DNA of 64,000 bases, taken from Candidatus Dadabacteria bacterium (GTDB lineage Bacteria; Desulfobacterota_D; UBA1144; Nemesobacterales; CSP1-2). Made by a program: the position numbers and the translations under genes. Positions 5,488 through 61,282 of this stretch are shown piece after piece. Position 1 is the stretch's first letter; every line of letters starts with the position of its first letter. Under the pieces are notes generated by a model, which saw nothing but the letters and a program-made list of their open reading frames with translations, was not told the DNA's origin and searched no databases. Location of the stretch: positions 800,001-864,000 of the forward strand of contig CAWDVW010000005.1 in the NCBI GenBank assembly GCA_963805855.1, in the 5' to 3' direction.

Positions 5488-5578
5488 GATTCATGATACA
5501 CGATGCAGGATGCAAGATAAATGGAGCCTTTCAGATTCATCCTGTATCATGTATCGTGCATCGTGCATCTGGTATCAT
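5488..5578. repeat. Inverted arrays of heptamer repeats (GATGCAN / NTGCATC)
   Basis: gattcat-gatacac-gatgcag-gatgcaa then ctgtatc-atgtatc-gtgcatc-gtgcatc. Confidence 0.8.
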
Positions 5579-15948: not shown

Positions 15949-16025
15949 GGGGATGTAGCTCAGACTGGGAGAGCGCCGCCTTCGCAAGGCGGAGGTCGGG
16001 GGTTCGAATCCCCTCATCTCCACCA
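15949..16025 (+). tRNA. tRNA-Ala(CGC)
   Basis: CCGCC-TT-CGC-AA-GGCGG anticodon arm; GTTCGAATC; CCA. Confidence 0.95.
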
Positions 16026-16082: not shown

Positions 16083-16300
16083 TTAATTTGTGTCTGAGGT
16101 GTCCGAATAGGTGTCTATCGCAGCCGATTTTAAGCGATTTCCTGGCTTATAGATAGCGGATTTTTTAGCCTCTTCCCAGGTATGACTGTATCGCTGCAGC
16201 ATCCTCATATCTTTATGTCCAGATATAGCCATTACGGTTGCGTTATCTTCTTTTTCATCAACTATGAGGGTCGAGACAAAAGTATGTCTCATATCGTGAA
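16083..16300 (-). pseudogene. Tyrosine integrase C-terminal remnant
   Basis: FHDMRHTF...SGHKDMRMLQRYSH; C-terminus resembles the 22326-23369 integrase; N-terminus missing. Confidence 0.85.
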
Positions 16301-16306
16301 AGCTTC

Positions 16307-16392
16307 CGGGGTAAGGTGATCTTGTATTACTACAGGGAGAAAACGCCTTCACGCCTGATATAGCGGGGTTAAAATGGCTAAACTGCACGTCC
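16307..16392. repeat. Island repeat, copy 1 (truncated)
   Basis: cggggtaaggt...gagaaaacgcc...gttaaaatggctaaactgcac; homologous to 24754, 26750, 29542. Confidence 0.75.
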
Positions 16393-16406
16393 GATTAATT
16401 GCGTTG

Positions 16407-16727
16407 TTAGATGTCATTGGTTTGTTTCCGACCTTTTTGATAGGGAACAAGAATCACTTTCTTATTACCCCAATAGATGATTAGGCCTAAAAACGCATAA
16501 CTGACAAGCGCTGGGATAAGCCACTCAAGACCTCGGAAGTACAGCAACATTGTAAAAACCAACGAAATGACAGCTATAAAGATACAGAAGGCTTGTCTGT
16601 ATTTTGTATCGGTATCGACCATGAACCTCCCTCGGCAATTGGGGCATATTCTGTAATTCTTGAAGAGGCCTTGGTGGCGAAGCTCCCTTAAACAAATCTC
16701 AATCTCGCAGTATGGACATGTTGTCAT
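16407..16727 (-). CDS. Zn-ribbon membrane protein in a cassette-like unit
   Basis: CxxC...CxxC, two TM helices; flanked by GTTAGGTG and CATCTAAC. Confidence 0.75.
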   Translation of the reverse strand: MTTCPYCEIEICLRELRHQGLFKNYRICPNCRGRFMVDTDTKYRQAFCIFIAVISLVFTMLLYFRGLEWLIPALVSYAFLGLIIYWGNKKVILVPYQKGRKQTNDI

Positions 16728-16739
16728 CGAGAGATCACA

Positions 16740-16848
16740 CCTAACTGTTAATTAGACTGCAATAATGCAGCATAATTCCCTATGAGGGATTTTATCCTGC
16801 AAATCGCTCTTCTAGTTGATACTAAGATAAATGTAATTTCTAGTCAAT
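16740..16848 (-). promoter_or_regulatory. Pc-like promoter plus attI-like site (copy A)
   Basis: TTGACT-17-TAGTAT, then ~74 bp to GTTAGGT; homologous to 30356-30466. Confidence 0.65.
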
Positions 16849-16986
16849 ATGAATGTATAGGAAAAATGAGCTACCCCCATAATAAGTCCATAACGAGAAC
16901 TAGATTTTTGATGAGCAACGCTGTAGACAGGAACTCATCAGAGTAATTAGGAAGGATTACATTTGTGAAATTTATATAATTCCATA

Positions 16987-17826
16987 CTATGCCGCCTGCC
17001 ATCTAACCTCATACAGCCGCACAGGCTCATCGAAACCACGTAGCGGTATCTCACCCTGGTCGGAAAATGGCAATTTCTTGCCGATGCACAGATCTTGTAT
17101 TACACGTGTGACCAAAATCTGTTCAGGTTTAGCATGGTCACAGATGCGAGCAGCGAGTTGGACGGTGGAGCCAAATAGATCCTGGCCTCCCGTGACGGGC
17201 TCACCAGCAGTGATGCCAATGCGAAGGTGGATAGTAGCGATGGGCTCCTTATTATTACAAGAAGCAACAGCCCTTTGAATAGACATAGCACACTCTACAG
17301 CGCGAGAAACAGAGCAAAAGGAAACCATGAAACCGTCACCTGTGTGTTTAACTTCGTTGCCATCATGAGTCTTTATAACATCGCGAATAATGGCATCATG
17401 AGTACGAAGGAGTTCCATGGCTTTAGAGTCCCCGAGGCGTGTTGTTATAGTCGTGGAACCCTCCATATCCGTGAACATGATAGTGCGAAAGGCAGAGTCT
17501 ATTATTGGTACGTTACTGGTAGGCGCAGGCGACTTGGTTGGCATTGGCGGGTCCTCAATTCTTCCAAGGAACGCCTTCACGGCCCCAGGGTTGACTTCGA
17601 TGATTTCGCTGGGAACATGTCCATGAGCTTCATGGTGCATCTGCTCTACAGCTTGTTTTCTCGGAGCCTCTATTAAACAAAAAGTCGTACCATTTGCTTC
17701 ATCAAACCAATATGTCAGGGCCTTGCAACCATACTTGTCTTGGATTTCAAGATCTTTCTGATGGGCCTCTGCAACTTCAGTTGCAGTCGTGCCTTTGATG
17801 TCATGACGATCCATATAGATAGGCAT
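16987..17826 (-). CDS. DUF4242 domain + class III nucleotidyl cyclase
   Basis: AHQKDLEIQDKYG...CLIEAP...H.EAHG; FTDMEGST, KHTGDG, DLFGSTVQLAARI. Confidence 0.88.
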   Translation of the reverse strand: MPIYMDRHDIKGTTATEVAEAHQKDLEIQDKYGCKALTYWFDEANGTTFCLIEAPRKQAVEQMHHEAHGHVPSEIIEVNPGAVKAFLGRIEDPPMPTKSPAPTSNVPIIDSAFRTIMFTDMEGSTTITTRLGDSKAMELLRTHDAIIRDVIKTHDGNEVKHTGDGFMVSFCSVSRAVECAMSIQRAVASCNNKEPIATIHLRIGITAGEPVTGGQDLFGSTVQLAARICDHAKPEQILVTRVIQDLCIGKKLPFSDQGEIPLRGFDEPVRLYEVRWQAA

Positions 17827-18594
17827 TCGATCCTCCCTGTCTCAATAAAGGCGACCTGTCTAATTATTTTATACAGCTCAATTGGAAGCCTCACTTGCAT
17901 ATGCTCAATTTTTGCATTATCCAGTTTAGGTTGTTCCATAGTAGCTCATGATAATGTATGAGCGCATGTAGGTCAATGTCAGAGATAATAAATATAGAGT
18001 TTTAAAGCAACGCTTAAAATACAGTTTCGCTATTAACGCCGTAGAGATGTTTTAATCTGAAAAGTTACACTATAACCTCTCTTAAAAAAATCTTTTAACC
18101 TTGCTTTATAGACAAGCTATAACAAGCATTTCCAAGTCTTATTTTGAGTAGAAATATCTTACATTAAGTAGTACAATTGGTGGTTGAGATTTTAAGTCAG
18201 GGGAGAGCTACTATAGTGAATTGACCCATCTGTACTGATCCCCTTTTGTCAAGAAGGGTTTAAGTTGGAATTATGTGATTCATATCTCGTTCAAACTGGC
18301 TTTGCGAGCAAGAATCCGGGGAAATTGTACGGTTCCTATCGGTTTATATTGGTTTCTTTGCATTGTCCGTATTCTAAGAACCCGCGCTGCACACCATTTA
18401 GTATGGATTCAAGGTAAATAACTACTCCGGAAATGTATCATTAGCGATTCCCGCCCTAATGGTGTTTTCTATTTATTGTTAAGCTTCGTAGTTACGAAGG
18501 GGCAGTTCTTTTTTGATTCGTCAAATATTGTAATTCAAGGTATAAAACTTTAGTATACTTATATATAGCGTACAAAATCGTTAGGAGGATTGGA

Positions 18595-19638
18595 ATGAAA
18601 TTAACTAAACCGCATGTGTTCGCTTTTGTACTCCTCTTGTACCTTATGTCCATAGGGGGCTGTAACGATAGTGAGAATTCCGGTGATGCGAATGTTCCTG
18701 CTTTAGTACCTTTTGATTTGAATGTCGCTGTGGAGTTGGCGACCCTAAGCCTTGTAGCTTATGACCAGCGTCTTCAGTGTATTAGCGGAGGTAAGGATGC
18801 GATAACGGTACCGGAAGGTTTCAAATTACAGGAGGTAATTTATCAACAGGTCGATACTAGTACGGATAGTGGTTGTAAGGACGATCCTCAGATAATCCCC
18901 ATAGCATTTATCGCAACGAAAGATGATAAAATCTTTCTCTCTTTCAGAGGGACTGCAAGCGTTTCGGATGAACTTGCAGACGCGCTGATTGAGCAAGAGC
19001 CGTTTACGTTTTTTATGATGGCTCCAGCAACCAATGCAAAGGTACAGCAAGGTTTCAACGAAGTATACATGGAGATCCGGGGGCCTATATTTGAAAAGAT
19101 AGAAGCTTTATCGAATGAGATGCAAGACGATGTGTTCAAATACAATACCTTGTTTATTACCGGACACAGCCTGGGGGCCGCACTCGCGGTGCTTGCAGTA
19201 CCCGACCTTAAGGAGGGTATTGAAAATCTTCCTCCGGTGGTAATGTACAACTTTGCCGGACCGAGTGTAGGAAATCCTGATTTTGTAGATCTGTATATGC
19301 AATCTGTACGCTCAAGCTGGAGGGTGGTAAATACGAAAGACGTTATTCCGAAACTGCCCCCGACAACGCTGGATTGCGACAATTACAGGTATGAGCATGC
19401 AGCAGGTGAATGGGATATTAAATTCGGGCCTAATCTTCCAGCTCTGCCTAAATTCAGTTGCAAAAATATTGGTATTATACAAGCTCAGATTTTGGAATAT
19501 CTATCAGATAATGAAAAGAAGGTGGAGATAGATCACAGCATGTGTACGTACCATGACACTCTTTGTGAAGAGCTCGTGGGCAATGAAGATTGTGCGGATA
19601 CCACAGACAATTCGCTCCATTGCACCCAATCTGAGTAG
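18595..19638 (+). CDS. Lipase class 3, predicted lipoprotein
   Basis: Lipobox IGGC, FRGT, GHSLG, DVIP, C-terminal His. Confidence 0.88.
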   Translation: MKLTKPHVFAFVLLLYLMSIGGCNDSENSGDANVPALVPFDLNVAVELATLSLVAYDQRLQCISGGKDAITVPEGFKLQEVIYQQVDTSTDSGCKDDPQIIPIAFIATKDDKIFLSFRGTASVSDELADALIEQEPFTFFMMAPATNAKVQQGFNEVYMEIRGPIFEKIEALSNEMQDDVFKYNTLFITGHSLGAALAVLAVPDLKEGIENLPPVVMYNFAGPSVGNPDFVDLYMQSVRSSWRVVNTKDVIPKLPPTTLDCDNYRYEHAAGEWDIKFGPNLPALPKFSCKNIGIIQAQILEYLSDNEKKVEIDHSMCTYHDTLCEELVGNEDCADTTDNSLHCTQSE

Positions 19639-19686
19639 TCAGATCGAACTATCCCGAATTAATGTTGAAATAAGCGTTTACTTTTC

Positions 19687-20817
19687 TGTACTGCTTACTT
19701 TATTATCAAGCAGCGTTTAAATGTACAGTATGATTTTTGCAATAATCCTCTTCCACCTGAATCGGCGAGCGGTATCCAAGAGCTGAATGAAGGTAATTCC
19801 GGTTGTAATAATCAACCCATTTATCCAGTCCCTTATTTAACTCCGCTTCACCCTTCCATTCCGTTAGCCAAAAGAGCTCTTCTTTCATTGTTCTTATCAT
19901 TCTCTCTGTATCTGCGTTTCCTTTAGGGTTATTGTAGCTCGTAAATACTTGCTGAACTCCCAGATTAGAACAGGTTTTAATAAAGCTGAGTGAAGTAGGC
20001 TGACTCCCGTTATCACTCATAAGCTTAAGTCCATGTCCTCTTACTCCTCCAGGGAACTCCCTGTTTAGTCCTTTCTCTAAAGCTTCCAGCCATTCTCTAC
20101 TTGTAGCTCTTGTTCCACTGTAGTGACCTACTATCTTCTTCGTATATCAGTCTAGTACTATTACAACATATACCCAGCCGCTGTCAGTGATAACCTTTGT
20201 CATATCTATTCCCCACCACTGCTTAGGCTTATTCGGTTTAGGCTTTGGTCTTTCTGACACTCTATTTGCTATTAGTCTTGGGTTAGGTTTTACAGTAAGG
20301 TTATGCTCTCTCATTAACCTGTATATACGCTTCTTGTTTATTATTAATCCATCTACAAATCGAAGATATGCCCATACTCTCCTGTAACCCCAGAAGGGAT
20401 GTTCTGGTTTTATATCTTTTATCCTTTCAAGTAAGTATTCGTTACGGAGACTTACAGAGTTTGACGGCATTCTCATATAAACTCGTCGTCTGTTTTTTTT
20501 AATTCAACAGTGAGTGAGCCTATTATTTGTTTTAACTCTTTATTCTTCTGACGGAGGCGGTCTATTTCTCCAGTGTCTTTTTTAGAATCAAACGCCTTAT
20601 GAGCTTCGGATAGAAACTTGTCACGCCAAGTGTAGTATTGGTTTTGATGTATTCCGTACTCGTTACATATCTCTGAAACAGGTCGTCCTGACAAGCCTTC
20701 AAGTACTATCTTGGTCTTGGTTTTAGAATCCCATCTTCTTCGCTTCATTGCTCCCTCTCCTTTTACCATAAAATTTACTAGCTTAATTCTACTAGCTTCT
20801 TAATGGGGAGCAGTATA
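19687..20817 (-). mobile_element. IS3-family insertion sequence; orfB interrupted by one nonsense codon
   Basis: OrfA HTH 20473-20769; OrfB WGYRR, GIDMT, SDNG, ER.IRT.KEE with in-frame TGA at 20147-20149; ends tgtactgct / agcagtata. Confidence 0.9.
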
Positions 20818-21043
20818 AATCATCAAATGGCTCTTTTTTGAATCCATTTCTTTTTTTTAGCATGACGTATGGCCTGCAGTATACTTATGCGGGAGGAAAG
20901 TTTTAATTTCTTAGATTTGATATTGTAAATCTCTTTTGAAATATGTTATATTGCTTCCGAAAATTTAAAATCACAAACACATTCGCAAGATCAATCGCTT
21001 CATAGCTTGAACAAATTAATCGAGTCGTAAAGGAGGATAGGGT

Positions 21044-21877
21044 ATGACGCGGAAAGATTTCAAGATTCATTTTTTCAAATTTGAAAGCACAGTACCAAAA
21101 TTCCTTAATATCAAACTTTACCACATTAAAATAATCCTAATCTCATTTTTTGGACTCACGCTGGTATCACTTCTGTCGTTCGTTATTGCATACAAGTATT
21201 ACAAAAGAGCTGAAATAAGTACCAATCAGAAAAGAGAACTGGCCGACCAGCTAAAGAGTCAGTCAAACGTACTAGACGAAATGAGCAAGGATGAACTTGT
21301 ATTGAAATCCAGGTTAGTAGAAATCGAAAAGAAGCTCTTGGAAATGCAGGAGTTACTTGACAAAAAGGGGATAAACAAAGAATTGTCTGTCGGAGGTAAG
21401 TACATCCCGGCCGACGGACTGGAATTATCCTATCTTGATAACATGGAAAAGGATATATATGAGCTGTTTAATGTTATCAAGAGCTATCCCCTGGGTAAGC
21501 CCATGATACAGACCGCTATCAGATCGGGTTTTGGATATAGAAGGGATCCGTTCAAATCCAGACCGGCTTTTCACTCCGGAATAGACTTCGAAGCCAAACC
21601 TGGACAGCCAGTATTTGCGACGGCTGACGGATTAGTCGAAAAAGCGGGCTGGTACTATAGTTATGGCAACACGGTAATAATCAACCATGAAAACGGGTAC
21701 GAAACACTTTATGGACACTTAACAAGGGCAGATGTGAAAGAAGGACAAAGGGTGAAGAGTGGCGATCTTATTGGCAATGCAGGTTCCACTGGAAGGTCCA
21801 CTGGGACACACCTGCATTACGAAATAATAAAAAACGGCAAGAAGCTAAACCCCTCTAAGTACTTAAGTTTAAAGTAA
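21044..21877 (+). CDS. M23 family metallopeptidase
   Basis: HSGID, YGH, STGRSTGTHLHYE; N-terminal TM and coiled coil. Confidence 0.92.
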   Translation: MTRKDFKIHFFKFESTVPKFLNIKLYHIKIILISFFGLTLVSLLSFVIAYKYYKRAEISTNQKRELADQLKSQSNVLDEMSKDELVLKSRLVEIEKKLLEMQELLDKKGINKELSVGGKYIPADGLELSYLDNMEKDIYELFNVIKSYPLGKPMIQTAIRSGFGYRRDPFKSRPAFHSGIDFEAKPGQPVFATADGLVEKAGWYYSYGNTVIINHENGYETLYGHLTRADVKEGQRVKSGDLIGNAGSTGRSTGTHLHYEIIKNGKKLNPSKYLSLK

Positions 21878-21904
21878 CTTTATTCTCAGCAAACTTATTT
21901 CGTA

Positions 21905-21996
21905 AATTTCTAGAGGGAATGCTCCCGGGTTTAGAAACATTCCCACTTTAAAGGAGGATAAAGGATGAAATGCGTTAAGTTGAAGGGCTAAGTGTA
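21905..21996 (-). ncRNA. Candidate sRNA copy 2 with UCCUCC motif
   Basis: Consensus TTGACA-17-TATAAT (22031-22003), ATCCTTTATCCTCCTTT, GGGAATG/CATTCCC hairpin. Confidence 0.6.
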
Positions 21997-22210
21997 ATAT
22001 CGATTATAAAGTAAGTTACTTAATGTGTCAAGAGGAAAAGTTCTTTCTCTTCTAATACCCCTAACTCGTTACAAAAAAGCTAATTTCTTCTTGAAAGTTG
22101 AACCCGCCATGATATACTGACCAAATCAACATATAAAAATTAAACCCTGCATCGAAAAACTATTAACAATCCTCATGTCGGTTTGAAACATACTCCAAAA
22201 TAGTAACCTT

Positions 22211-22282
22211 GGCGGCGTAGCTCAGAGGTAGAGCAGGGCTCTCATAAGGCCTTTGTCGGAGGTTCGATTCCTCCCGCCGCCA
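22211..22282 (+). tRNA. tRNA(CAT), probably elongator Met (Ile2 not excluded); CCA not encoded
   Basis: GGCGGCG/CGCCGCC acceptor stem, CTCATAA loop, GTTCGATTC. Confidence 0.9.
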
Positions 22283-22325
22283 GTAATGATTTATCAATAC
22301 ATAAAGCTAGTTATATAGAAGTAGT

Positions 22326-23369
22326 TTAGAAATGAGTCTTGGGCATAACTAGCGAGGTGTCCGAGGAGGTGTCTATATCCGCTAATTCGACAGCCCTTTT
22401 CTTATGTTCTGGCGTCGGGTGAGAATACCGCTTTGTCATAGCTATTGTTTTATGTCCTAGCAACTCTTGAACCGTTACTATATCAACTCCAGCCATTATC
22501 CCTCTTGTAGCAAAGGTATGCCTCAAAGTATGGAATGTACAATGCGCGATTCCGGAACGCTTTAGAGCAGTTCCAAATGATCTATAAATATATTCTATTG
22601 GCTTTCCGTCCCTATAGGAGAATAGATATTCATCATCAGTATTATTTTTTAAGTCCACAAGAATCCTTGTTAGACGCTGGCTCATGGGAATAGCTCTTGA
22701 TTCATAGTTTTTACTATCCCTTACAATGATGTATCCATTCTCAAAGTCTATATCTTCCCACTTTAAGTTAAGAATCTCGCCTTTACGCATCCCCGTGGAT
22801 CTTGCTACAAAAAGTATCGGTTTCAGGTGAAGGGAAGCCGAATTATAAAGGAGTTGAAATTCTTCATCGCTAAGCACTCTAGGTTTCTCTAAAGGCGTCT
22901 TAAAAAACTTTACCCCCTTTACTGGGTTTTGATCTATTTTCCCCCAATGGATAGCCAGGTTAAATATCCTTTTGAAAACCGTCATCTCTCTATTTATTGT
23001 AGATAGAGCTTTACCTTCCTCTTTTCTAAAAGACTTATATTTCTCAACATGCCATGAAGTAATACTGCCAAGTGGCATTTTACCGAAATGTCTATTCAAT
23101 ACTTTACTTATGGTTATATCCCTCTTGTAGGAGCGATGATTGTCCTTTGCATAGTTTAAATATTCCTCCACGATCCGGCTAAATAGAATCGGCTTCATTA
23201 CTTTTTCTAACCCGAACTTACCTTGGACTATTTCCCCCACTCTTGCTTTTAGCGCTTTTTCTGCCGTTGATCTTGTTATCTTATCTATATGCCCTACGAC
23301 TTCTCTTTTACGTTTTCCATTATAGTAATAATCGATATACCAACGATTACCTTTAATATATACTCCCAT
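22326..23369 (-). CDS. int: Phage-type tyrosine integrase
   Basis: GMRKGE, K(NY), HTLRH, LGH, RYSH catalytic set; N-terminal arm-binding domain. Confidence 0.95.
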   Translation of the reverse strand: MGVYIKGNRWYIDYYYNGKRKREVVGHIDKITRSTAEKALKARVGEIVQGKFGLEKVMKPILFSRIVEEYLNYAKDNHRSYKRDITISKVLNRHFGKMPLGSITSWHVEKYKSFRKEEGKALSTINREMTVFKRIFNLAIHWGKIDQNPVKGVKFFKTPLEKPRVLSDEEFQLLYNSASLHLKPILFVARSTGMRKGEILNLKWEDIDFENGYIIVRDSKNYESRAIPMSQRLTRILVDLKNNTDDEYLFSYRDGKPIEYIYRSFGTALKRSGIAHCTFHTLRHTFATRGIMAGVDIVTVQELLGHKTIAMTKRYSHPTPEHKKRAVELADIDTSSDTSLVMPKTHF

Positions 23370-23578
23370 TACTTAGACCTCCTACTTTTTATTTTTTGTA
23401 TTGGCAAAGAAGGCTCTTTAATTTCGTGGCCTTCTTGTTTCATTAATTCGTGGATTAAAGCCCTGATTACCTCGGATGCCGTTAACATGCTATCTTCAGC
23501 ATATTTATTCAGAAATTCCAACTCCTTTTCATGTAGCCAAACCCTAAATAATTTGGTTCTTAATCTCTTCTGTCTCAT
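23369..23578 (-). CDS. Ribbon-helix-helix DNA-binding protein (possible Xis/regulator)
   Basis: FRVWL..KE.E.L..YA......SEVIRALI; TAATG overlap with int. Confidence 0.7.
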   Translation of the reverse strand: MRQKRLRTKLFRVWLHEKELEFLNKYAEDSMLTASEVIRALIHELMKQEGHEIKEPSLPIQKIKSRRSK

Positions 23579-23586
23579 GTAACGAT

Positions 23587-23615
23587 ATTATAGCTACATA
23601 TCTTATGGTAGTCAA
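23587..23615 (-). promoter_or_regulatory. Sigma-70 promoter for RHH-int operon
   Basis: TTGACT-17-TATAAT ending 8 nt before the ATG. Confidence 0.7.
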
Positions 23616-23735
23616 GTGTTGTTTTGAACCTTTCAACTAATAAGGGAATATACTTTATTGTGAGATGTAAACAATCTGAAAGAACGGCGATGTAATGTCT
23701 TTTCAAACTTCAAACAGTTAAACAAAAATGATATA

Positions 23736-24212
23736 ATGTACACCATGAAAGAAATAGCTAAAACCGATATAAAACTGTCAGATTTTCCACCTAAATTGAG
23801 GAAAATTATCGATTATATAGTAGAAAATAAGGATTTTTATGACTTGGATGAAGCTATCAGTCAACTTGGCTTGAATCCTCATTCTATATCTACTATGAAA
23901 AGCAGGTTGAAGAAAAAGGGAATAGTTTTAGAAGATTATATCTACAATAAGAGAAATGAGAGGATAAAAAAGTATGTCCCTTACGTTGATAATAGTTTGG
24001 TAAATAGGGCTATCTCAGGATCGGCTAAGCACCAGGAATTATTTTATAAGAGAACCGGTGAACTGGTAAACAAACATGAAATAGACTACAGGGTAACTGG
24101 CCTATTCGCAGTATTTAGTCCTGGCACTAAAATGCCAGCGAAATTGATAGAAGAGGATAAGGTCCTTAAACCTAATGGAGTGCAGATTATAGATGCAGAG
24201 ATTGAGGATTGA
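23736..24212 (+). CDS. HTH protein, terminase small subunit-like
   Basis: N-terminal HTH, 'L.NRA.SG.AKH.ELFY..TG' segment and acidic tail (IDAEIED) recall TerS proteins. Confidence 0.5.
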   Translation: MYTMKEIAKTDIKLSDFPPKLRKIIDYIVENKDFYDLDEAISQLGLNPHSISTMKSRLKKKGIVLEDYIYNKRNERIKKYVPYVDNSLVNRAISGSAKHQELFYKRTGELVNKHEIDYRVTGLFAVFSPGTKMPAKLIEEDKVLKPNGVQIIDAEIED

Positions 24213-24239
24213 GGCCACTATATCTAGTAATTCAATCCA

Positions 24240-24268
24240 GGTTCGTATAAGAATCAATTATGTAAACT
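24240..24268 (+). other. dif-like XerC/XerD site
   Basis: GGTTCGTATAA-gaatcaa-TTATGTAAACT versus E. coli dif GGTGCGCATAA-N6-TTATGTTAAAT. Confidence 0.7.
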
Positions 24269-24753
24269 TTCCCCTCCCCTAACTTGCCTTAATTCCTACT
24301 AAATAAAAGTGGCATAAAATACCCTCAATATAATCATTGGTTCTAATGTATATTAATACGTTCTTATAGGATCAATACACCCTAGAATGGGTATTTATTA
24401 GCTGTAAAGGTATGTTCTTTTGATGATCTATGCCTTAAATAAACATAACTGACTATTATCTCTTTCCCTTCCAGAATCCTTAAACCCCAATATGTTGTGT
24501 TATATATCCCCAAATGCACATCACCTTATGACTCTATGCTATGATGCAACCACCATTTAAATTAAGGATTGAAGTAAAATTGTAGAGGATTTTTAATTGA
24601 AATGAATGATAAAGTGTTCCGGAAAATGAAGGGCGGGGGAGGGTATGAGAAGAAGCCACCGGAGTCTATGCGCCCATCCCCCTGGGGGTTGCCACCCCCT
24701 CCCCCCTCCCGTATACGCTATACCCCACCTCTTGATTAGGGCAAAAAAATTCT

Positions 24754-24874
24754 CGGGGTAAGGTTATGTATCAAATCAACGAGAAAACGCCTCTACGTCG
24801 GTTACAGCGGCGTTAAAATGGCTAAATTGCACATGCCAATACTTCACCTGGCGAACAATGTGAGATAGGTTTTT
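24754..24874. repeat. Island repeat, copy 2
   Basis: gagaaaacgcc...ggctaaattgcacatgccaatacTTCACCTG-N8-TGTGAGATA. Confidence 0.8.
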
Positions 24875-25387
24875 CATCACCGATTGTTAACGTTTTAGTC
24901 CGGATTAGTCACAGTATTCTAACTCTGCAAAATTTTACCTCCTTTCTTGTCTTGACCTCGTACGTGATGCTAATTGAAATATGCTTAATTCAGATATTTG
25001 CACGACAATTTGTTTGCCACAAAAAACACACCCAACATTCCTATTGACTCATAAGATTTAACTGTGATATAGTCTAGTTTCCGAAACGGGTATGCAGTAA
25101 TCATATAATCTAGTGGAGATGGGGGTAAAGTGATGATGTGGCAATTACTTGTGGTTACATTTCAGTGGATAGACCCTTCTAGTTTTATACCAATTCCAAG
25201 TCGTATCAACAAGCCCCACAAAAATATTAGGAAAGTTTTGTTCAAAACCAATCCTGTTAATACCTGTAGCACTTGGGGGGTGATTCCAATCGACAATGTT
25301 AGCCCCTAAGTTTGGTGACAACCAAACCGACGGGGATTACGAAGTCAGATGTAAAACTATGTAAAAAAATGATAGGAGGTGTATACC

Positions 25388-25804
25388 ATGAATCAATTTC
25401 CAAAGTGGCTTTTACATCGTGTGTTCTTTCCGTTGACCCTAGTGATGTTAACTAATTTGGGTGCTATATCAGGCGAACTACATGCATCTGTTGTCAACTT
25501 CGAACCAGGAGCCGTTCCAAGGGATAGAACGGCTGAATGTATGGTCACGAATGTAGGGAGCTCGACCAGGGAGGTCGGAGTACAAATCACCTCACTGCCC
25601 GAGACAATGGTACCTTTACTTACTGTAACGTTAGAACCGGGAGAAATAAGCGGTCTAGTAGTTGATATTTCCCCAGCATTTTCAGTTCTAGCTTATTGCA
25701 GCTTTTATTTTTCGGGTTCCAATTCTGATATGCGAGGCATAATTAGAGCGGTGGATCGATCAACCGGAGAGGCCATTGTTTTAGAACGTGCAGAGGCGCG
25801 GTGA
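25388..25804 (+). CDS. Secreted hypothetical protein (small beta-rich domain, 2 Cys)
   Basis: AGGAGG RBS, signal-peptide-like N-terminus, downstream terminator. Confidence 0.7.
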   Translation: MNQFPKWLLHRVFFPLTLVMLTNLGAISGELHASVVNFEPGAVPRDRTAECMVTNVGSSTREVGVQITSLPETMVPLLTVTLEPGEISGLVVDISPAFSVLAYCSFYFSGSNSDMRGIIRAVDRSTGEAIVLERAEAR

Positions 25805-25814
25805 TGAGATTTTG

Positions 25815-25838
25815 AAAGGGGGCCTCGGCCCCCTTTTT
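25815..25838 (+). terminator. Intrinsic terminator
   Basis: aaagggggcc-tc-ggcccccttttt. Confidence 0.85.
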
Positions 25839-26091
25839 GTTCGGTCTGATTATTAATTAAGGCAACTTAAAGAAGTCATTATAAAAGAGGAATGTACTGC
25901 TCCCCTTTTGTCAAGATGGGTTTAAGTTGGAAACATAAAGAATAAATGCTTTCAATAATCCATTTCCGAACTCATCTCGACCATTGACTATTACTTTCGA
26001 AATATTGTATTGTACTTGCGATGACGACGAGTGTAATTCATCCCTCTAGTCTCACCAAGTAAGTGTTGTTACATTTTCAAGGAGGAGAAAA

Positions 26092-26658
26092 ATGGGCTAC
26101 GGCAGAATACTTGCAAGCCTCACATTGACCGGGATTTTACTTGTTTTTTGCAGCCAGGCTGTCCTGGCTGGTCAGCAAGTCTTTGCAGCACGAGTGTGCG
26201 CAGGAGACGATACGGTCTTAGAGCCTTGCGACACCGGCGTGGATGTGAGCTCGGATTTCCTGGTAACAGGTTGGGACCAAGCTGAAGTGTATGCCTCGTC
26301 CGGAAAGCGGATCGTTCCGGAATCAGACGGAATTCGCATCAACAAGACGGGATTTTATCGGGTTGTGTTTGAGACCACGGTGTTATATAGCGCGAACGCC
26401 GTGGAACAGACTCCAGACACAGCGGGTAACCTTTATTTGCGCGACAGTGATGACCAATTCCTTGGTTCTTGCAGCACGGCCCCAGCGAAAGCGGCATCGC
26501 TGTTGGAGTGGGCCCAGGGATTCTTCGTAACAGAGTGCATCTGGTCAGGAACGCTTAAATTCGAGAAAGGTGATGTATTCAAGCTGTACTTTGTCTTGGG
26601 CAGTGAGCCCGGAGCGCCAAGCTCCGTTCAGGTTCGCCTCGATGTTAGTCGCTTGTAA
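26092..26658 (+). CDS. Secreted protein, C1q/TNF-like beta-sandwich possible
   Basis: Signal peptide; 'GIRINKTGFYRVVF...LKFEKGDVF.LY' pattern. Confidence 0.65.
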   Translation: MGYGRILASLTLTGILLVFCSQAVLAGQQVFAARVCAGDDTVLEPCDTGVDVSSDFLVTGWDQAEVYASSGKRIVPESDGIRINKTGFYRVVFETTVLYSANAVEQTPDTAGNLYLRDSDDQFLGSCSTAPAKAASLLEWAQGFFVTECIWSGTLKFEKGDVFKLYFVLGSEPGAPSSVQVRLDVSRL

Positions 26659-26749
26659 GCAGCGCAATTAGTGAATACGAACCGGGAGGACACTCCTCCC
26701 TCCGGCTCTTGCTCATAAAGCCCGCTGGCACGCTAACGAAAGTTTTCTA

Positions 26750-26888
26750 TATCTCACAGCCTCTGACAGGTGAAATCATGGTTGTTAAAGATTTCTCCAG
26801 GGAGAAAACACCTCCACGCCCTTCACAGCAGCGTAAAAACGGCTAAATTGCACATGCCAATACTTCACCTGACAGTCAACGTCAGTTA
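26750..26888. repeat. Island repeat, copy 3 (most complete, with terminal inverted boxes)
   Basis: TATCTCACA-N8-CAGGTGAA ... TTCACCTG. Confidence 0.8.
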
Positions 26889-27042
26889 ATAATTGGATGA
26901 CTCACCAAACAGAAAAGCCTTTCTTAATCTTCTATACCAAAATCGAGGGTTATTCATATTAGATATAAATAATTTAAAACTTCTCTTGACAAGCGTACCC
27001 GCAGCCTGTATTAGACTTATATAGGGAATAAACATAAATAAT

Positions 27043-27128
27043 AGTTCTAAACGATGAGGGCTACCCCGTTAGGGGACGCAAAGCCGTAGGTCTTAAGCAT
27101 TTGCTTAAGGTAGCTTGGTTGCCGAACT
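27043..27128 (+). ncRNA. c-di-GMP-I (GEMM) riboswitch
   Basis: GGGC..CCCC-GTTA-GGGG-ACGCAAAGCC..GGTCTTAAG..GGTAGC..GTTGCCG; P1 AGTT..CG/CGAACT. Confidence 0.85.
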
Positions 27129-27319
27129 TAGAGCTATTGCCTTTCTTAGTTCTTCCTTCCCAATCAGCTCCCGGCTTTTCTTTCAATTAACAGCCCTTAT
27201 CAATTGGAAATGCGATTGGGGAGGTAATGCCTATTGAAAACTAAACGATTTAGGAGTGATAAGATCCGTAAGTGTGACTTGCCGAATTTTTCTTAATTTA
27301 ACAATGGGGGTATGGTTAC

Positions 27320-28270
27320 ATGTTAAATAAAAATTTAAAGTTTATTTTGATATTAGTCGCCAGTCTGGTTTTCCCGATTAAAGGTTGGGGAGGTGCTGTC
27401 CCTGCGTTTTTTAATGCTAAGACAGATGACGCCTCTTTCCAGCTTTATTATGTCTGGGACTTAAGGAATAGGGATAGTTATTTTCAGGTTTTTAATACTA
27501 GTGAGCTTCAGTCCGTTACAGTACATATCCAAGTATTTGATGCGACAGATGGGACCGAATCCAGTTGTGAAATTCGCGATTACTATGACACGTATACACC
27601 CAGGGACACTCATGTCTACAACCTTCGTAATTTAGATAGAAATAATGGGCACTTCTTGTTTCCCCCTTTTCCCGCGGACGGGTTCGGTTTTGTTGTGGTA
27701 ACTGTTGTTACAGGTGAGGAAGGCGTCGCTGTTCAGAATCCGGTCCTGATAGGTAACTTCAGGATAATAGATAATGCTGGCTATGAGTACAGATCAAATG
27801 CGGCAGGCTATCCTAATACCCTAGGCGAGGTGGCGCTACCTCCCCCAATTAGCACATATTCGTTCAACTTTAACAATGCTGATGGTAAGACATTTGCAGA
27901 TGTAGTTGGTATTGCAGTTTTTCATGCCGGTCCTGGTCCTGGGTTCAATCGTGTCATTGCAAATCCGACATATCGTGCGAATTTTGATGAAGTAACCATC
28001 ACTGATGAGAATGAAGACGCTGATATTTGTCCACCAGTTACATTTGCATGCGGGGCAGGGGCAGACTTTGATCTAGGTATTGACACTGCTGTCAAGAACA
28101 GCAAGGGTGTGAGCGTTATTTGCCCTGAGTCCCATATAGAAGATGTAGGTTTTGTTAAGCTCGAAGAAACCGAATCTAGTTCAACAACGGCAGACTTCTT
28201 TGTTGGATTTATAGGGCTTAACAACGGAGGTCGCACCGGAAGCATGGATTCTTTCACCGCGGTGCCGTAA
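27320..28270 (+). CDS. Secreted hypothetical protein
   Basis: Signal peptide; WDLRNRDSYFQVFNT...C...DTYTPRDTHVYNL. Confidence 0.8.
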   Translation: MLNKNLKFILILVASLVFPIKGWGGAVPAFFNAKTDDASFQLYYVWDLRNRDSYFQVFNTSELQSVTVHIQVFDATDGTESSCEIRDYYDTYTPRDTHVYNLRNLDRNNGHFLFPPFPADGFGFVVVTVVTGEEGVAVQNPVLIGNFRIIDNAGYEYRSNAAGYPNTLGEVALPPPISTYSFNFNNADGKTFADVVGIAVFHAGPGPGFNRVIANPTYRANFDEVTITDENEDADICPPVTFACGAGADFDLGIDTAVKNSKGVSVICPESHIEDVGFVKLEETESSSTTADFFVGFIGLNNGGRTGSMDSFTAVP

Positions 28271-28321
28271 AAATTGTTCAGAGTTTATGTTTCAGAAGAT
28301 TTAAGAAGAGGAGAAATAACC

Positions 28322-29341
28322 ATGTTAAAAAATTCGAAAATAAAATCAATCGCTTTTGCGAGTATACTGGTTTTAATTATTGGATTTAGCCATTCTTATG
28401 AGGCCCGAGCACTGGAGCTATGTCCTGTTGGTTCGTTTGCGAATGGGGCAATAACTATTAACGTAGCGCCCGGCGTCTCTGATGTTGATTTTGTGGGTGG
28501 GCTTTTAGGCACGTTTGAAAGCAGTGGTAAAGGAAAGGTAGTTGGGGGTATTGATTGGCTATACAACAAAGATAATGAAAGTAGTTTTGAGACTTCTTCA
28601 ACTGCACCGCAACTTATTGGATATTGGAATCAAGATAAGAGGAGGAACACTTTTATTCAGGTTACAAATACCAATCAAGGCAGCCCCGTTTCACTTTCTA
28701 TAGAACTTTTGGATGAGAACTGCTTAGATCCCTTAAGTTTTTGTGATACGCTTTCGCCCGGAGACACACATGTCTATAACTTAGGGGGAATTAAGGTAAA
28801 AGAATTCAAAGAACCTATAATGATCACCAATGACGGAAGCGTTCTTGTAGATAATATTCAAGGGCATGAGGGGATTTTTGTGGTGACTCCGATTATTGAA
28901 TGTGGTGTAGACAGAAGGGCAATTGAGTTTCCGTTTTTGCATGGTGATATTCGAGTAATAGATGACAAAAATAAATTTGACTACGGAGCCAAAATGTGGG
29001 CGAGGGGCGCCAATACCTCTGGTTGCGAAGACCAAACCGGGGGGTTTAACATTTTAGATGGAACGGAATATTGTAAATTTCGAGACGTCCTGCCATCCAA
29101 ACTGAGTCAGGTCTTTTCGACTATTTCAAACCCGGTAAATGCTAGGTCTGATATAATTTTATTTGCCCTGACCGATTCATATTCGGACGATATTTACACC
29201 CCTTCTTCAAATTCATCATTTGTAACTTTTAACCCAGCTATTCTTGATGAGGACGAGCTTTCTTTGAGCTGTCTTGGAGAGACTGTGTGTTTTGCGAGAT
29301 TTGGATTAAATGAGACGATCCCAATAAGTAAGAAAAAGTAA
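28322..29341 (+). CDS. Secreted hypothetical protein, paralog of the upstream gene
   Basis: ATG after AGGAG; shares RNTFIQVTNT...C...DTLSPGDTHVYNL and G.IR.ID motifs. Confidence 0.8.
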   Translation: MLKNSKIKSIAFASILVLIIGFSHSYEARALELCPVGSFANGAITINVAPGVSDVDFVGGLLGTFESSGKGKVVGGIDWLYNKDNESSFETSSTAPQLIGYWNQDKRRNTFIQVTNTNQGSPVSLSIELLDENCLDPLSFCDTLSPGDTHVYNLGGIKVKEFKEPIMITNDGSVLVDNIQGHEGIFVVTPIIECGVDRRAIEFPFLHGDIRVIDDKNKFDYGAKMWARGANTSGCEDQTGGFNILDGTEYCKFRDVLPSKLSQVFSTISNPVNARSDIILFALTDSYSDDIYTPSSNSSFVTFNPAILDEDELSLSCLGETVCFARFGLNETIPISKKK

Positions 29342-29541
29342 GATAGTCAGAAGGAGTGGGAAGGTTAGTCCTAGACCCTATACTCAAATGCCTTGCTTCT
29401 TGAGTTCTAATTTTATATTTATTGGATTTCTTATACTGCTCCCCACTGACACCCTTCAATATTTACCAACAACTCATCTCAAATAGGCTGTATACTATTA
29501 TTAGAATGAAATTAGTATGTGCATGGTGTGAGAGAGTTATT

Positions 29542-29610
29542 GCAGCGTTAAAATGGGCTAATTTCCACCTACCAATACTTCACCTGACGGACAATGTGAG
29601 ATAGGTTTTG
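29542..29610. repeat. Island repeat, copy 4 (right half)
   Basis: gcagcgttaaaatggg...ccaatacTTCACCTG-N8-TGTGAGATAgg. Confidence 0.8.
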
Positions 29611-29714
29611 ATTCCCCTTTCGTTAAGATTGGGTTAAGTCGGGTTTAATACACATTAATGCTATTGACTTAAACAAGTGAATTATGATATAGTGGTATCC
29701 ATAACGTCACAGAC

Positions 29715-30068
29715 ATGAAAAAGAAAGTCGAGCGTAAATTCCTAACAGGTCTAAAATTAAAGCCCTTAAAGTTGGTTGCTGCAACTCCTGTCGAGCTCTT
29801 TGGACATGTTACTTTAGTTGAAGGGTACGACCTACCGAGCTATATCGGTTGCCATGCACTAGTGGCCCTGCGTGACACACCTGGAAAAACAGTTGCAGTA
29901 CTGACTTCAGAGCATCGGCTGCAGACTCTATTAGAATCAGCCCTCGTCAGCGGTAACCTGATAGCTTTTTGGGGACAGAAACTATCTAGTCCTCCAACTC
30001 CTGCTGGGGGTACATGGATAGTGGACGTATACAGTATTGACCGTGTGATACTTTACAACTTCGTGTAA
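29715..30068 (+). CDS. Hypothetical protein
   Basis: 117-aa ORF with TTGACT..GATAT promoter-like sequence upstream. Confidence 0.6.
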   Translation: MKKKVERKFLTGLKLKPLKLVAATPVELFGHVTLVEGYDLPSYIGCHALVALRDTPGKTVAVLTSEHRLQTLLESALVSGNLIAFWGQKLSSPPTPAGGTWIVDVYSIDRVILYNFV

Positions 30069-30195
30069 TTATCTTTTAAGTACTACAAAGCAGCAAGTGA
30101 GCAGTACTACTGCCGTCCTACCTATCAAAATTCCTCCTCATAGAGAAAATGCGTATCTAAAAGGTGGAATGCCTATTGGGATGGGAGCACAGAGT

Positions 30196-30331
30196 TGTAC
30201 TGCTCCCCTTTTATCAAGTTCGAGTTATGAAGAATGTAGTGTTTCCTCCGTTTCTCATCCGCCCGTTTCCGATTATGCCCACTAAGCCTATCTATTGCTT
30301 TACTCATGGTCTTACTATAGGGGATAGGCCA
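30196..30331. mobile_element. MITE-like remnant with IS3-type ends
   Basis: tgtactgctccccttttatcaag ... atggtcttactataggggataggcca; ends match other IS termini in the window. Confidence 0.55.
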
Positions 30332-30355
30332 TTTTTGGTTTTTCCATATTTTCCC

Positions 30356-30466
30356 ATTGACTAGAAATTACATTTATCTTAGTATTAAAAACAAGAGCGA
30401 TTTGCAGTATAACACCCCTCATGGGAAATCATACTACATTTTCTCACTGTAATTAATAAGTTATGT
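30356..30466 (+). promoter_or_regulatory. Pc-like promoter plus attI-like site (copy B)
   Basis: 30-bp identity with 16819-16848 (reverse complement); TTGACT-17-TAGTAT; GTTATGT core at 30460. Confidence 0.7.
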
Positions 30467-30511
30467 GGCGGAGAGCGCGTCGCAACAACCGGATGATGAG
30501 GATAAGGTTAC

Positions 30512-31204
30512 GTGAAGTCTAACAGTGAAAGACACTTTTCGCAAAGGATCGGCTGGCTACGGGCGGCGGTACTGGGCGCCAACGACGGCATCGTATCTAC
30601 GGCGAGCTTAGTAATGGGCGTCGCAGCCGCCGATGCCGCGCGTGGAAATGTATTAATTGCAGGTGTCGCGGGGCTGGTTGCTGGTGCAATGTCAATGGCC
30701 GCTGGTGAGTATGTCTCGGTTAGCTCACAAGCCGACACGGAGAAAGCTGACTTACACCGAGAGCGACTTGAGCTTGAATCTAACCCTGAGTTTGAACGCC
30801 GAGAATTGGCTCGAATATACGTTGAAAGGGGCCTGGATTCTTCCCTTGCCAGCCAAGTAGCTGAGCAACTAATGAAACACGACCCACTAGCAGCCCACGC
30901 GCGCGATGAATTGGGCCTATCGGAGGCGCATTCTGCGCGCCCCGTTCAAGCGGCTTTAGCTTCAGCCGGCACCTTCGCCGTGGGTGCTGCTCTACCTCTC
31001 TTGATGGTGTTGATTGCACCGCCGAGATTACTCATGGCTTCTGTAGCAGGGAGTTCGTTGGTCTTTCTTGCCCTTTTGGGGTGCTTGGCTGCGCGTGCTG
31101 GTGGTGCCAACATGGTAATTAGCGCAGGTCGCGTTACTTTCTGGGGCGCACTGGCTATGGCCCTCACTGCCGGAATTGGAGCGCTGTTCGGAGCCGTAAT
31201 TTGA
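30512..31204 (+). CDS. VIT1/CCC1 family Fe/Mn transporter (integron gene cassette)
   Basis: LRAAVLGANDGIVS, AMSMAAGEYVSV; higher GC than surroundings; flanked by core site and attC. Confidence 0.93.
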   Translation: MKSNSERHFSQRIGWLRAAVLGANDGIVSTASLVMGVAAADAARGNVLIAGVAGLVAGAMSMAAGEYVSVSSQADTEKADLHRERLELESNPEFERRELARIYVERGLDSSLASQVAEQLMKHDPLAAHARDELGLSEAHSARPVQAALASAGTFAVGAALPLLMVLIAPPRLLMASVAGSSLVFLALLGCLAARAGGANMVISAGRVTFWGALAMALTAGIGALFGAVI

Positions 31205-31221
31205 AAAGGAACAGGGCGGCC

Positions 31222-31280
31222 ACATAACAAGTCGCTGCAACAGACCAGCTAACGCTAGCTGCTGAACTCTGTCGTTATAC
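31222..31280 (+). other. attC site (59-base element)
   Basis: R'' ACATAAC, L'' GCTGCAAC, stem CAGCTA/TAGCTG, L' GCTGAAC, R' GTTATAC. Confidence 0.85.
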
Positions 31281-31457
31281 GACTTAATTTGCAAATTATA
31301 AGGGTCAAACTAAAGGTATTAACCCCACACTCGCCCTACCCGAAAATTCTCAAGCCATCCCTCAAACTCAGGTGGTGAAATATATACCCGCTTGCAAGTT
31401 TTATGCTTTGAAATTTAATCCCAATTGAGAAGAAAATGGCCGTATACTTTTATTAGG

Positions 31458-31646
31458 ATGAAATTAGTCTGTGCCTGGTGTGAGAGTGTTATAGCAGGGC
31501 CAATAATAGGTATTGAGGGTGGTGATGAGGTAGCCCCTTTCATCTGCAAAGGCTGTTTCTACGAGGTGTTTGAGGAAGGCGATAAGGCAGATATTTCCGA
31601 GCTATATGCAGCGATACAGGCTAAGAGTGGAAGATATGAGAATTAG
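31458..31646 (+). CDS. Small Zn-binding phage-type protein
   Basis: MKLVCAWC...ICKGC; truncated second copy at 29506. Confidence 0.6.
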   Translation: MKLVCAWCESVIAGPIIGIEGGDEVAPFICKGCFYEVFEEGDKADISELYAAIQAKSGRYEN

Positions 31647-31670
31647 GTCAGAGTATGAACGACATAATAA

Positions 31671-31874
31671 TTAGTTTCCGCAATTCGAGCATTTAAAATG
31701 GTTGGGATTCGATTTTATAAAATCTAGTAACTCATTAAGATCATCTATGGTTGGGATATCGTCTCGCAGGTGAACAGGTTTTTTGCACACGTTGCGATAT
31801 CTCGCTATTTCAATTTGATCTCTACCTCCCATTTCTGGAGAACTAACTCTAATTAAAAATTTATCAGCAGACAT
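31671..31874 (-). CDS. Small hypothetical protein
   Basis: 67-aa ORF, GGGGGAAG RBS-like sequence, C-terminal CxxC. Confidence 0.45.
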   Translation of the reverse strand: MSADKFLIRVSSPEMGGRDQIEIARYRNVCKKPVHLRDDIPTIDDLNELLDFIKSNPNHFKCSNCGN

Positions 31875-31948
31875 GATTTACTTCCCCCCAAGTAAGTAGG
31901 ACCAAAGCAGATTGTTGCTATATTATTACCTAATCGGGTTCATTGGGT

Positions 31949-32090
31949 CTACCCCTCTCTGTCAAGCCCAGCCTAAGTTGAAATCATAGAGAATGTAACC
32001 CTTCATAGCCACTCTGACGACCTACTGTCTACAGGTCAGCTCATCAAAAATCTAACTTAGACTATGGTCCTATTATAGGGGGGCAGGCCA
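31949..32090. mobile_element. MITE-like IS3 end remnant
   Basis: 32046-32090 nearly identical to IS end 34603-34646. Confidence 0.65.
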
Positions 32091-35385: not shown

Positions 35386-35433
35386 GCTCTCATAAGGCCT
35401 TTGTCGGAGGTTCGATTCCTCCCGCCGCCAGTA
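35386..35433 (+). repeat. attR: duplicated 3' part of tRNA(CAT)
   Basis: Identical to 22238-22285. Confidence 0.95.
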
Positions 35434-59565: not shown

Positions 59566-59599
59566 TGCAGGATGCATGATGCAAGATACAGGATGCAGG
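59557..59599 (+). repeat. Heptamer array (GATGCAN) x6
   Basis: gattcat-gatgcag-gatgcat-gatgcaa-gatacag-gatgcag. Confidence 0.8.
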
Positions 59600-61250: not shown

Positions 61251-61282
61251 ACTCTTTTTTAACCTCCCGAAGTTAGATCTTT

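Follow-up and report, generated by a model that had tools for sequence, protein, structure and literature searches.

The stretch of DNA analysed here, which we call the window, comprises 64,000 nucleotides (C5:800001-864000) of a 3.1-Mb assembly of a Candidatus Dadabacteria bacterium, an uncultured salt-marsh organism (9 contigs, 93.8% complete). It carries two related blocks, copy A (16739-16866, minus strand) and copy B (30332-30466, plus strand), each consisting of a sigma-70-type promoter and a site of ~70 bp (Table 1). A repeat finder returned the blocks as inverted arms of 118 nt (16748-16865 and 30339-30456) that are 81% complementary, and pairwise alignment revealed an identical 30-nt stretch, ATTGACTAGAAATTACATTTATCTTAGTAT, which holds TTGACT-17-TAGTAT. 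After this promoter, both copies read AAGAGCGATTTGCAG..CCCTCAT..GG.AAT..CATT..TAATTAA and run to a GTT, the G of which lies 75 nt past the -10 box in copy B (30460) and 74 nt past it in copy A (16745). There the similarity stops and different genes follow, an open reading frame (ORF) for a Zn-ribbon protein after copy A and VIT1 after copy B. An earlier reading of the same DNA, made from its letters and referred to below as the sequence-only reading, had described homologous blocks that share 30 bp and diverge into different genes at the GTT; alignment and repeat finder agree, and the likeness of the two copies is far beyond chance. Our data point, with a probability of roughly 0.88, to the blocks being the cassette-ward promoter (Pc) and attachment site (attI) of a lineage-specific chromosomal integron that has lost its integrase gene, intI.

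Five copies of this unit are present in the genome at E <= 2e-22: A, B and three more, here named C6, C2 and C4. A covariance model built from 20 copies scored the window copies at 85.9 bits (A) and 69.9 bits (B), which is a match by construction, since both are part of its training set. Of 15 genomes from this family, 7 also have matches to the unit. Named records with the motif are metagenome-assembled genomes (MAGs) of Candidatus Dadabacteria or Thermodesulfobacteriota/Desulfobacterota, together with two that carry the labels Deltaproteobacteria and Ignavibacteriales. A pattern scan of genome contigs gave 11 hits, eight of them in records of these kinds; the other three (Lachnospiraceae, Clostridia and Wolbachia) have no flanking motif and were discarded as chance matches. 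When metagenomes were scanned with a pattern of 26 nt, 68 contigs were returned, which with the earlier loci yielded 65 instances of the unit, 63 of them unique.

A gene beside the unit points to its nature. When all ORFs within 4 kb were clustered around the 65 instances, the top family was a protein encoded on the opposite strand, divergently, and starting ~82 nt before the anchor. This protein is the integron integrase (IntI): the copy at locus L055 scores 456.1 bits on TIGR02249 (cut-off, 265), and L061 also has a full-length intI beside the unit. Among the 37 instances with at least 1,100 nt of upstream sequence, two have a full-length intI, nine have stubs of 22 to 113 aligned residues and 26 have no detectable homology; the remaining 28 have too little upstream sequence to be judged. 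A conserved TTTTCCAT box, found ~10 nt upstream of the -35 box in nearly all units, is the start codon of intI read in reverse. TIGR02249 matches over the cut-off occur in 4 of the 15 family genomes, with the gene intact only in G014 (484.5 bits, 325 amino acids [aa]), interrupted by three stop codons in G007 and partial in G009 and G012. The IntI of G014 is 76% identical to that of L055 and aligns end to end with the structure of Vibrio cholerae IntI4/VchIntIA (2A3V; residues 12-323 to chain residues 6-318, 321 bits), and the alignment is unbroken across query residues ~205-240, a stretch that is absent from the XerA, XerC-like and XerD matches.

Beside the intI genes of G014, G007 and G012, at the same divergent position, lie sites of equal layout with other box sequences. 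The G014-type attI reads TTCGTATAAC - 16 nt - ATTATGCGAA - TTCGTATAAT - TAAGAGTTAGGC (..GTTAGGC), the G007/G012-type attI reads GCTGTATAAT - ATTAGACAGC - GCTGTCTAAT - ATATAGTTAGCC (..GTTAGCC), and the window-type attI reads TTGCAGTATAAC - TTATACTGCA - TTGCAGNCTAAT - TAATAGTTAGGC. Written as 7-mers, the first and third boxes are inverse (GTTATAC and ATTAGNC) and the second and fourth direct (TTATAC and GTTAGGC). Across the three variants the boxes of one site change in concert, and such joint variation per IntI lineage is what recognition through a cognate recombinase predicts. The claim of the sequence-only reading that the blocks are a Pc-attI platform without IntI is therefore borne out by the match to intI-linked sites elsewhere. 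Two natural rearrangements of attI, both between direct boxes, were seen in relatives: at L019:1501-1590 (G009) everything between box 1 and box 3 is gone, and at L021:1476-1569 (G013) box 3 is duplicated.

In our model, the four integrase-core-like boxes, which alternate in orientation, would be bound by IntI. Box 1 (GTATAAC) and box 2 (TTATAC) would precede a simple site made up of boxes 3 and 4 (CTAAT-5 nt-GTTAGGC), at which cassettes would enter between the G and the TT. The cognate intI normally lies on the opposite strand and starts ~10 bp before the -35 box, and Pc would drive the cassettes placed after attI. Cassettes would have entered via IntI-mediated recombination between attI and the cassette's own site, attC, either before intI was lost or via IntI supplied in trans. 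We infer the binding of the boxes, the activity of the promoter on the cassettes and the IntI-mediated entry from comparison of the sequences. Promoter B, likewise a sequence-based prediction, fits the consensus at 9 of 12 positions, and its placement is constant across copies.

The right-hand end of the homology coincides with the predicted crossover, which in copy A lies between 16745 and 16744. In two pairs of platforms, the identity ends at the GTT: it is 98.5% over 137 nt between L092 and L093 and 100% over exactly 66 nt, the attI core only, between L081 and L109. Five relatives match window 30150-31330 at the DNA level only over positions 183-317 of that segment (30332-30466), and neither the repeat to the left (element M, described below) nor VIT1 to the right was matched. 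Of 62 junction heptamers, 53 begin with GTT and 26 fit GTTRRRY, GTTAGGC being the commonest form (13 instances); of the window's own heptamers, GTTAGGT (copy A) fits and GTTATGT (copy B) has one mismatch. Downstream sequences are distinct in 57 of the 62. Identity ending at the GTT with variable genes after it, as expected by the sequence-only reading, is what the platform pairs, the five relatives and the downstream sequences display, and none of the computational signs to the contrary (the same gene after every copy, no breakpoint at the GTT, no match to an intI-linked site) was seen. A second breakpoint lies on the left. From box 1 to +470, copy C4 shows 90% identity to its G006 counterpart, but upstream of box 1 the two are unrelated, which suggests that platforms can exchange the promoter-side module, with the left edge of attI as the breakpoint.

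The first bases of an integrated cassette derive from its own attC, and hence the reverse complement of the junction heptamer is expected as R'' at the 3' end of the cassette. Its exact reverse complement was found downstream in 21 of 62 loci; in 200 permutations with the heptamers shuffled among loci, the mean was 7.4 and the maximum 14, and none reached 21. The 21 loci are a lower bound, since many loci have little downstream sequence. In 12 of them, an R' partner closes an attC-like hairpin of 56-105 nt; the scan found no R' partner in the other nine, in which the sites are short or truncated or the contig ends. An alignment of 13 sites (11 of those 12 and two chosen by eye, L096 and L150) shares the motif RYYYAAC-AA..TGCACCCGAC...GCGTTAGGC.

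VIT1 of the window lies on such a cassette, as the sequence-only reading had proposed. Its attC is canonical and starts 18 nt after the VIT1 stop codon, and R'' (ACATAAC) is the reverse complement of the junction GTTATGT at 7 of 7 positions. The cassette is missing from the five relatives. In each of four DNA runs, which come from four studies, short contigs span the junction of attI and VIT1, which is therefore not an assembly artefact; no joint that skips exactly the VIT1 cassette occurs in the contigs of these runs, which hide rare forms. The joints that were seen in them run from 30222 to 30346 and from 30222 to 32043, between copies of element M. After VIT1, no second attC or cassette was found. 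The Zn-ribbon cassette of copy A ends in the 5' half of an attC, the R'' of which (ATCTAAC) differs from the expectation for junction GTTAGGT by one G-T mismatch. The window thus contains one complete and one decayed cassette.

Among 231 half-signature hits in the whole genome, the site at 31222-31280 alone is a complete attC-like site; the signature was built from the 13 sites, including the window's own, and is informative on the absence of others. A generic scan for RYYYAAC..GTTRRRY with strict hairpin rules gave no candidates in four arrays, looser rules gave counts equal to those in shuffled sequence, and genome-wide the generic scan returned 161 scattered hits. The informative tests for attC are only two, the junction complement and the family-specific signature.

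All five copies in this genome have lost intI and are orphaned platforms. No TIGR02249 match over the cut-off is present in the genome (94%-complete assembly), the best score of 88.3 bits belonging to a Xer-like gene, and tblastn with the L055 IntI found Xer- and phage-type genes and a 72-residue N-terminal fragment at C5:443598-443810. The absence of IntI noted earlier for the window hence holds for the whole assembly as well. The five window-type copies retain TTTTTGGTTTTTCCAT, the ATG and four codons, and directly past this stub lies the end of a repeat of ~140-200 bp, element M, which carries IS3-like repeats at its termini (TGTACTGCTCCCC ... GGGG.GCAGGCCA) and occurs at least 11 times in the genome. 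In B, C6 and C4, M meets the intI stub at one and the same position; in copy A a small deletion runs across the junction, and in C2 the end of M has diverged. The IS3-type end that the sequence-only reading had placed upstream of both promoters is there in copy B (30196-30235, D3 family, 70% to the reference copy); upstream of copy A, only the inner part of M was found. Its idea of a minimal platform does not stand: the platforms are decayed integrons, in which an intI stub of 16 nt is joined to a miniature IS3-type element, and not a version designed to be minimal.

A sixth platform (L157), to which the N-terminal fragment found by tblastn belongs, lies outside the window at C5:443440-443810 and has an attI of the G007/G012 type and an intI stub of 73 aa. 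The genome accordingly holds six orphaned platforms, five of the window type and one with another attI variant, and more than one integron lineage has lived in it. The gene after the sixth platform is cupin-like and resembles the second gene of the metagenome locus L064.

Table 1. Features of the two platforms and their surroundings in the window
Feature	Position	Strand	Basis or remark
attI A, four core-like boxes, crossover heptamer GTTAGGT at 16745-16739	16739..16809	-	model 85.9 bits (copy in training set)
attI B, crossover heptamer GTTATGT at 30460-30466	30397..30466	+	model 69.9 bits (copy in training set)
Pc-type promoter A (putative), TTGACT-17-TAGTAT	16819..16847	-	sequence; position kept in all copies; faces cassette
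Pc-type promoter B (putative), TTGACT-17-TAGTAT	30357..30385	+	position conserved across copies
intI start remnant of copy A	16857..16866	+	start codon mutated, small deletion; alignments
intI stub of copy B, ATGGAAAAACCAAAAA, 16 nt, five codons	30332..30347	-	homology to relatives starts exactly here; IntI N-terminus of relatives
Element M, inner part, IS3-type terminal repeat missing	16874..16963		repeat finder and alignment
Element M, full, TGTACTGCTCCCC ... GGGGATAGGCCA	30196..30331	+	replaces intI from about codon 6
VIT1 cassette (complete)	30461..31274	+	ORF 30512-31204(+), Fe/Mn transporter family, PF01988 232 bits
VIT1 attC, 59 nt, R'' ACATAAC, R' GTTATAC	31222..31280	+	junction complement, R' pairing, signature scan
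Cassette A ORF, 106-aa Zn-ribbon membrane protein, no Pfam family	16407..16727	-	
attC 5' half, R'' ATCTAAC at 16412-16406, then L''-like AACGCAATTAATCGGAC	16385..16412	-	overlaps Zn-ribbon stop codon
tRNA-Ala(CGC), 720 nt from platform A	15949..16025	+	ARAGORN, Rfam
Phage-type tyrosine integrase fragment, 101 aa, downstream of cassette A	16083..16388	-	PF00589 28.6 bits, catalytic end only
tRNA-Met	22210..22283	+	ARAGORN, repeat finder
Intact phage-type integrase of tRNA-Met island	22326..23369	-	Pfam; PHROG 1; TIGR02249 49.5 bits, below cut-off

Several observations weigh against an integron that has lost its integrase. Most units are known only as orphans, with no IntI homology in 26 of the 37 instances that could be judged, and the putative boxes are assigned by comparison. 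Copy A holds half an attC only; the matching 3' half was not found, and an integrase fragment comes next. No attC was detectable after the first gene of C6, C2 and C4, and these genes may not be cassettes, although attC sites of another type would escape the 13-site signature. With 93.8% of the genome in nine contigs, intI might also lie in unassembled DNA. Finally, units occur in tandem, three of them within 4.2 kb in L064 and two each in L046, L052 and L110, which an integron with a single attI does not predict. Each unit of L064 has a TTCCAT remnant and its own gene, followed in the first by a truncated attC, and in the G007 array a window-type unit lies 6 kb from that array's own G007-type attI.

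The nearest precedent for tandem arrays of the L064 type may be the attI-bounded cassettes of clinical integrons: PMC12901181 describes DeltaattI-type cassettes and attI1-gene-attI1 structures, in which attI-type sites bound cassettes and are recombined by IntI1. Those are class 1 and 2 elements tested in vivo, whereas the platforms described here are known from sequence alone. The genes after the units of L064 (3230-7500) are Hsp20-like, bicupin-like and the start of a third ORF, and HigBA-like and ParDE-like pairs lie between the units; these names derive from a reading of the translations, not from family searches.

In class 1 integrons, Pc lies inside intI1; here the promoter is situated in the spacer between intI and attI. 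The class 1 platform is otherwise alike in its divergent intI, the promoter directed toward the cassettes, the pair of inverse core-like heptamers, the crossover between G and TT of GTTRRRY and the additional boxes upstream. According to the passages of PMC3146285 that cite Partridge 2000, attI1 consists of a simple site and two IntI1-binding sites in direct repeat, DR1 and DR2. By analogy, boxes 1 and 2 may play the part of DR1 and DR2, although they form an inverted pair 16-17 nt apart, not direct repeats. The sequence is unrelated to attI1, and the platform is chromosomal, belongs to an uncultured lineage and is missing intI. Compared to the Vibrio integron, cassettes are few: no long and homogeneous array of them was seen, with a single attC in the window and few in the relatives. 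The attI sites from marine sediment of Elsaied et al. 2011 (PMC3146285) are similar in that they form lineage-specific families with a simple site beside intI and diverse first cassettes; most of them are without accessory repeats, whereas here four boxes are conserved over three variants, and the natural junctions number ~60.

Cury et al. 2016 (PMC4889954) state that attI is unknown for most integrons, define a CALIN as two or more attC sites with no intI close by and report intI pseudogenes near 15 of 279 CALINs. The CALIN and In0 categories of IntegronFinder, as outlined there, resemble the present case in being remnants without one of two components, but neither fits: attI and Pc persist here, with zero or one attC and an intI stub of five codons, and by signature scan only one full attC-like site exists genome-wide. 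The attI/IntI class is new, and the multicopy orphan state of a known system is unusual. Among the papers listed in a literature search for texts with both words, none links integrons with Dadabacteria in title or abstract, and a search for a truncated intI1 with attI1 and IS26 gave no paper.

How did the orphaned platforms come to carry different genes? It is possible, and reasonable in view of the shared truncation, but unproven that they still work: intI would have been truncated once, the platform would have multiplied, and the copies would have been loaded by IntI supplied in trans. Consistent with this tentative scenario, M abuts a common stub position (clear in B, C6 and C4), and relatives have no M there; the five copies share a clade (99/98 support) with two platforms from relatives that also keep an intI stub; five different genes follow the five copies; and the attI junction and attC of the VIT1 cassette are undamaged. 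The sixth platform, with its other attI variant and its stub, points the same way. On the other side, the assembly has no intI now, and a complete cassette bounded by attC exists at only one of the five copies. Furthermore, the promoter-side module is swappable without touching the cassette, as in C4 and G006, and L081 and L109 have only the 66-nt attI core in common; with such swapping, the shared truncation may have spread by conversion between platforms that were already loaded. The lack of a cassette-skipping joint in the contigs of the four runs weighs little, as contigs hide rare forms.

A broader version, which we regard as doubtful, is that Pc-attI is an entity in its own right that outlives IntI, is exchanged as a unit, multiplies and offers a scattered set of landing pads, ready for expression, to any compatible IntI passing by. 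It invokes the two recurrent breakpoints (the left edge of box 1 and the G-TT crossover), the six platforms in 3.1 Mb, the tandem repeats of platform and gene in metagenome contigs and the frequent location in islands close to tRNA genes.

Could the unit instead be a small mobile element, of the miniature inverted-repeat (MITE) kind or of a hairpin-ended peel-and-paste type, that carries an outward promoter and inserts upstream of genes? The 66-nt core of L081 and L109, 100% identical between flanks that are unrelated on both sides, is what such an element would leave, and a true miniature element, M, does abut the unit in this genome. However, the unit has no terminal repeats or target duplications around it, always faces the same way with respect to intI and the genes after it, and occurs without M in relatives; its right boundary is the integron crossover heptamer, the complement of which recurs in the attC of the cassettes. 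Pairs of empty and filled sites with the 66-nt core alone present or absent were not found. We consider a mobile element of this kind improbable.

Least probable of all is that the unit is a regulatory 5' leader of a stress regulon (a riboswitch, attenuator or operator) and not a recombination site. The unit was at first taken for a leader RNA because many matches in relatives cover only the part after the promoter. Indeed, a sense ORF starts within ~150 nt downstream in 21 of 22 instances examined, and the downstream ORFs include Hsp20-, DinB- and toxin-antitoxin-like ones (by reading of the N termini, not by family searches). The unit also holds a 10-bp hairpin (TGCAGTATAA..TTATACTGCA) followed by a T run, an alternative hairpin and a third direct copy of the arm. 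However, RNAalifold on 20 copies gave 8 pairs and no compensatory change, the stems being conserved in sequence and the loop variable, and Rfam was negative for 16400-17100 up to E <= 10, while a search of the whole window at the gathering score placed no family on the blocks. Conserved arms around a variable loop without covariation argue for protein-binding boxes and not for an aptamer, and the adjacency to intI, the concerted change of the boxes with the IntI lineage and the cassettes bounded by attC weigh against a leader. A structured leader RNA or riboswitch and a terminator-antiterminator pair were rejected for want of covariation and of an Rfam match; a Q-type pause site, a CIRCE-like operator, abutted IS3 ends and a PeSL-like phage regulatory cassette were dropped on the adjacency to intI. 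The transcribed attI may still have a secondary role in expression.

Platform A lies 720 nt from tRNA-Ala, beside the integrase fragment. The 48 nt at the 3' end of tRNA-Met (22238-22285) recur at 35386-35433 and delimit a 13-kb island that includes platform B and has the phage-type integrase next to the tRNA. Among the other copies, C6 is located 190 nt after tRNA-Asn and C2 180 nt after a 36-nt repeat of the 3' end of tRNA-Thr; no tRNA was found near C4. In all, three of the five copies lie within ~1.2 kb of a tRNA or tRNA repeat, and with 46 tRNAs in 3.1 Mb such proximity is unlikely to be due to chance (p on the order of 1e-3, a rough estimate and not a formal test). In 20 scanned loci, which comprise intI-linked platforms and cassette arrays from relatives and from metagenome contigs, no tRNA was found beside the platform; two tRNAs of L151 are more than 10 kb from its platform.

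The gene at 22326-23369 gave the only tyrosine-recombinase match within the window range in two whole-genome searches, in line with the earlier statement that the sole intact enzyme of this kind in the window is phage-type; the 101-aa fragment at 16083-16388 comes in addition. That the islands are phage-satellite-like, as the sequence-only reading had supposed, finds no backing: a PHROGs search with 10 ORFs from the tRNA-Met island gave the integrase, one weak repressor-like hit (E 3e-4) and nothing else, and Pfam gave nothing for 8 of the 10. No integrase was found near C6, C2 and C4, three of the five copies, where ordinary genes are located (peroxiredoxin, DJ-1/PfpI, aldo-keto reductase and radical SAM).

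The tRNA-Met island also contains a c-di-GMP-I riboswitch (27049-27126, plus strand; RF01051, 43.5 bits, gathering score 35), which precedes two ORFs without a Pfam or PHROG family (27320-28270 and 28274-29341). Just upstream of platform A lies an SCO4226-like adenylate/guanylate cyclase gene (16987-17826, minus strand), a 64%-identical homologue of which is the first gene after an attI unit in G005 (L017:614-1447). A family of 87-nt direct repeats (16337-16423, 24781-24867, 26802-26888 and 29517-29603; 61-82% identity, all on the plus strand) has one copy overlapping the start of the integrase fragment and one directly abutting an IS3-type terminal repeat. A decayed IS3-family element occupies 18231-20828, with orfA and orfB fragments at 19706-20769 (minus strand), termini at 18231-18270 and 20804-20828 and a class-3 lipase gene (18595-19638) between the termini. 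Tandem 7-nt units (GATGCAG/GATTCAT-like) occur in both orientations at 5488-5521, 59543-59601 and 61280-61312.

In sum, the platforms belong to a well-defined attI family with four boxes, three variants that shift with IntI, ~60 junctions of attI and cassette and cognate attC sites, and this family is material for asking how an attI is read by its IntI. The genes on the cassettes are of ordinary environmental kinds, and no resistance gene is among them. According to PMC4889954, attI is unknown for most integrons and not searchable by software. Integron remnants are therefore counted only via attC clusters or intI. The state described here, in which platforms of promoter and attI persist, multiply and lie in genomic islands after intI has decayed, is missed by current categories. 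If loading in trans is true, cassette capture would not be tied to the locus that encodes the integrase, and surveys based on intI or attC would undercount the sites of capture.

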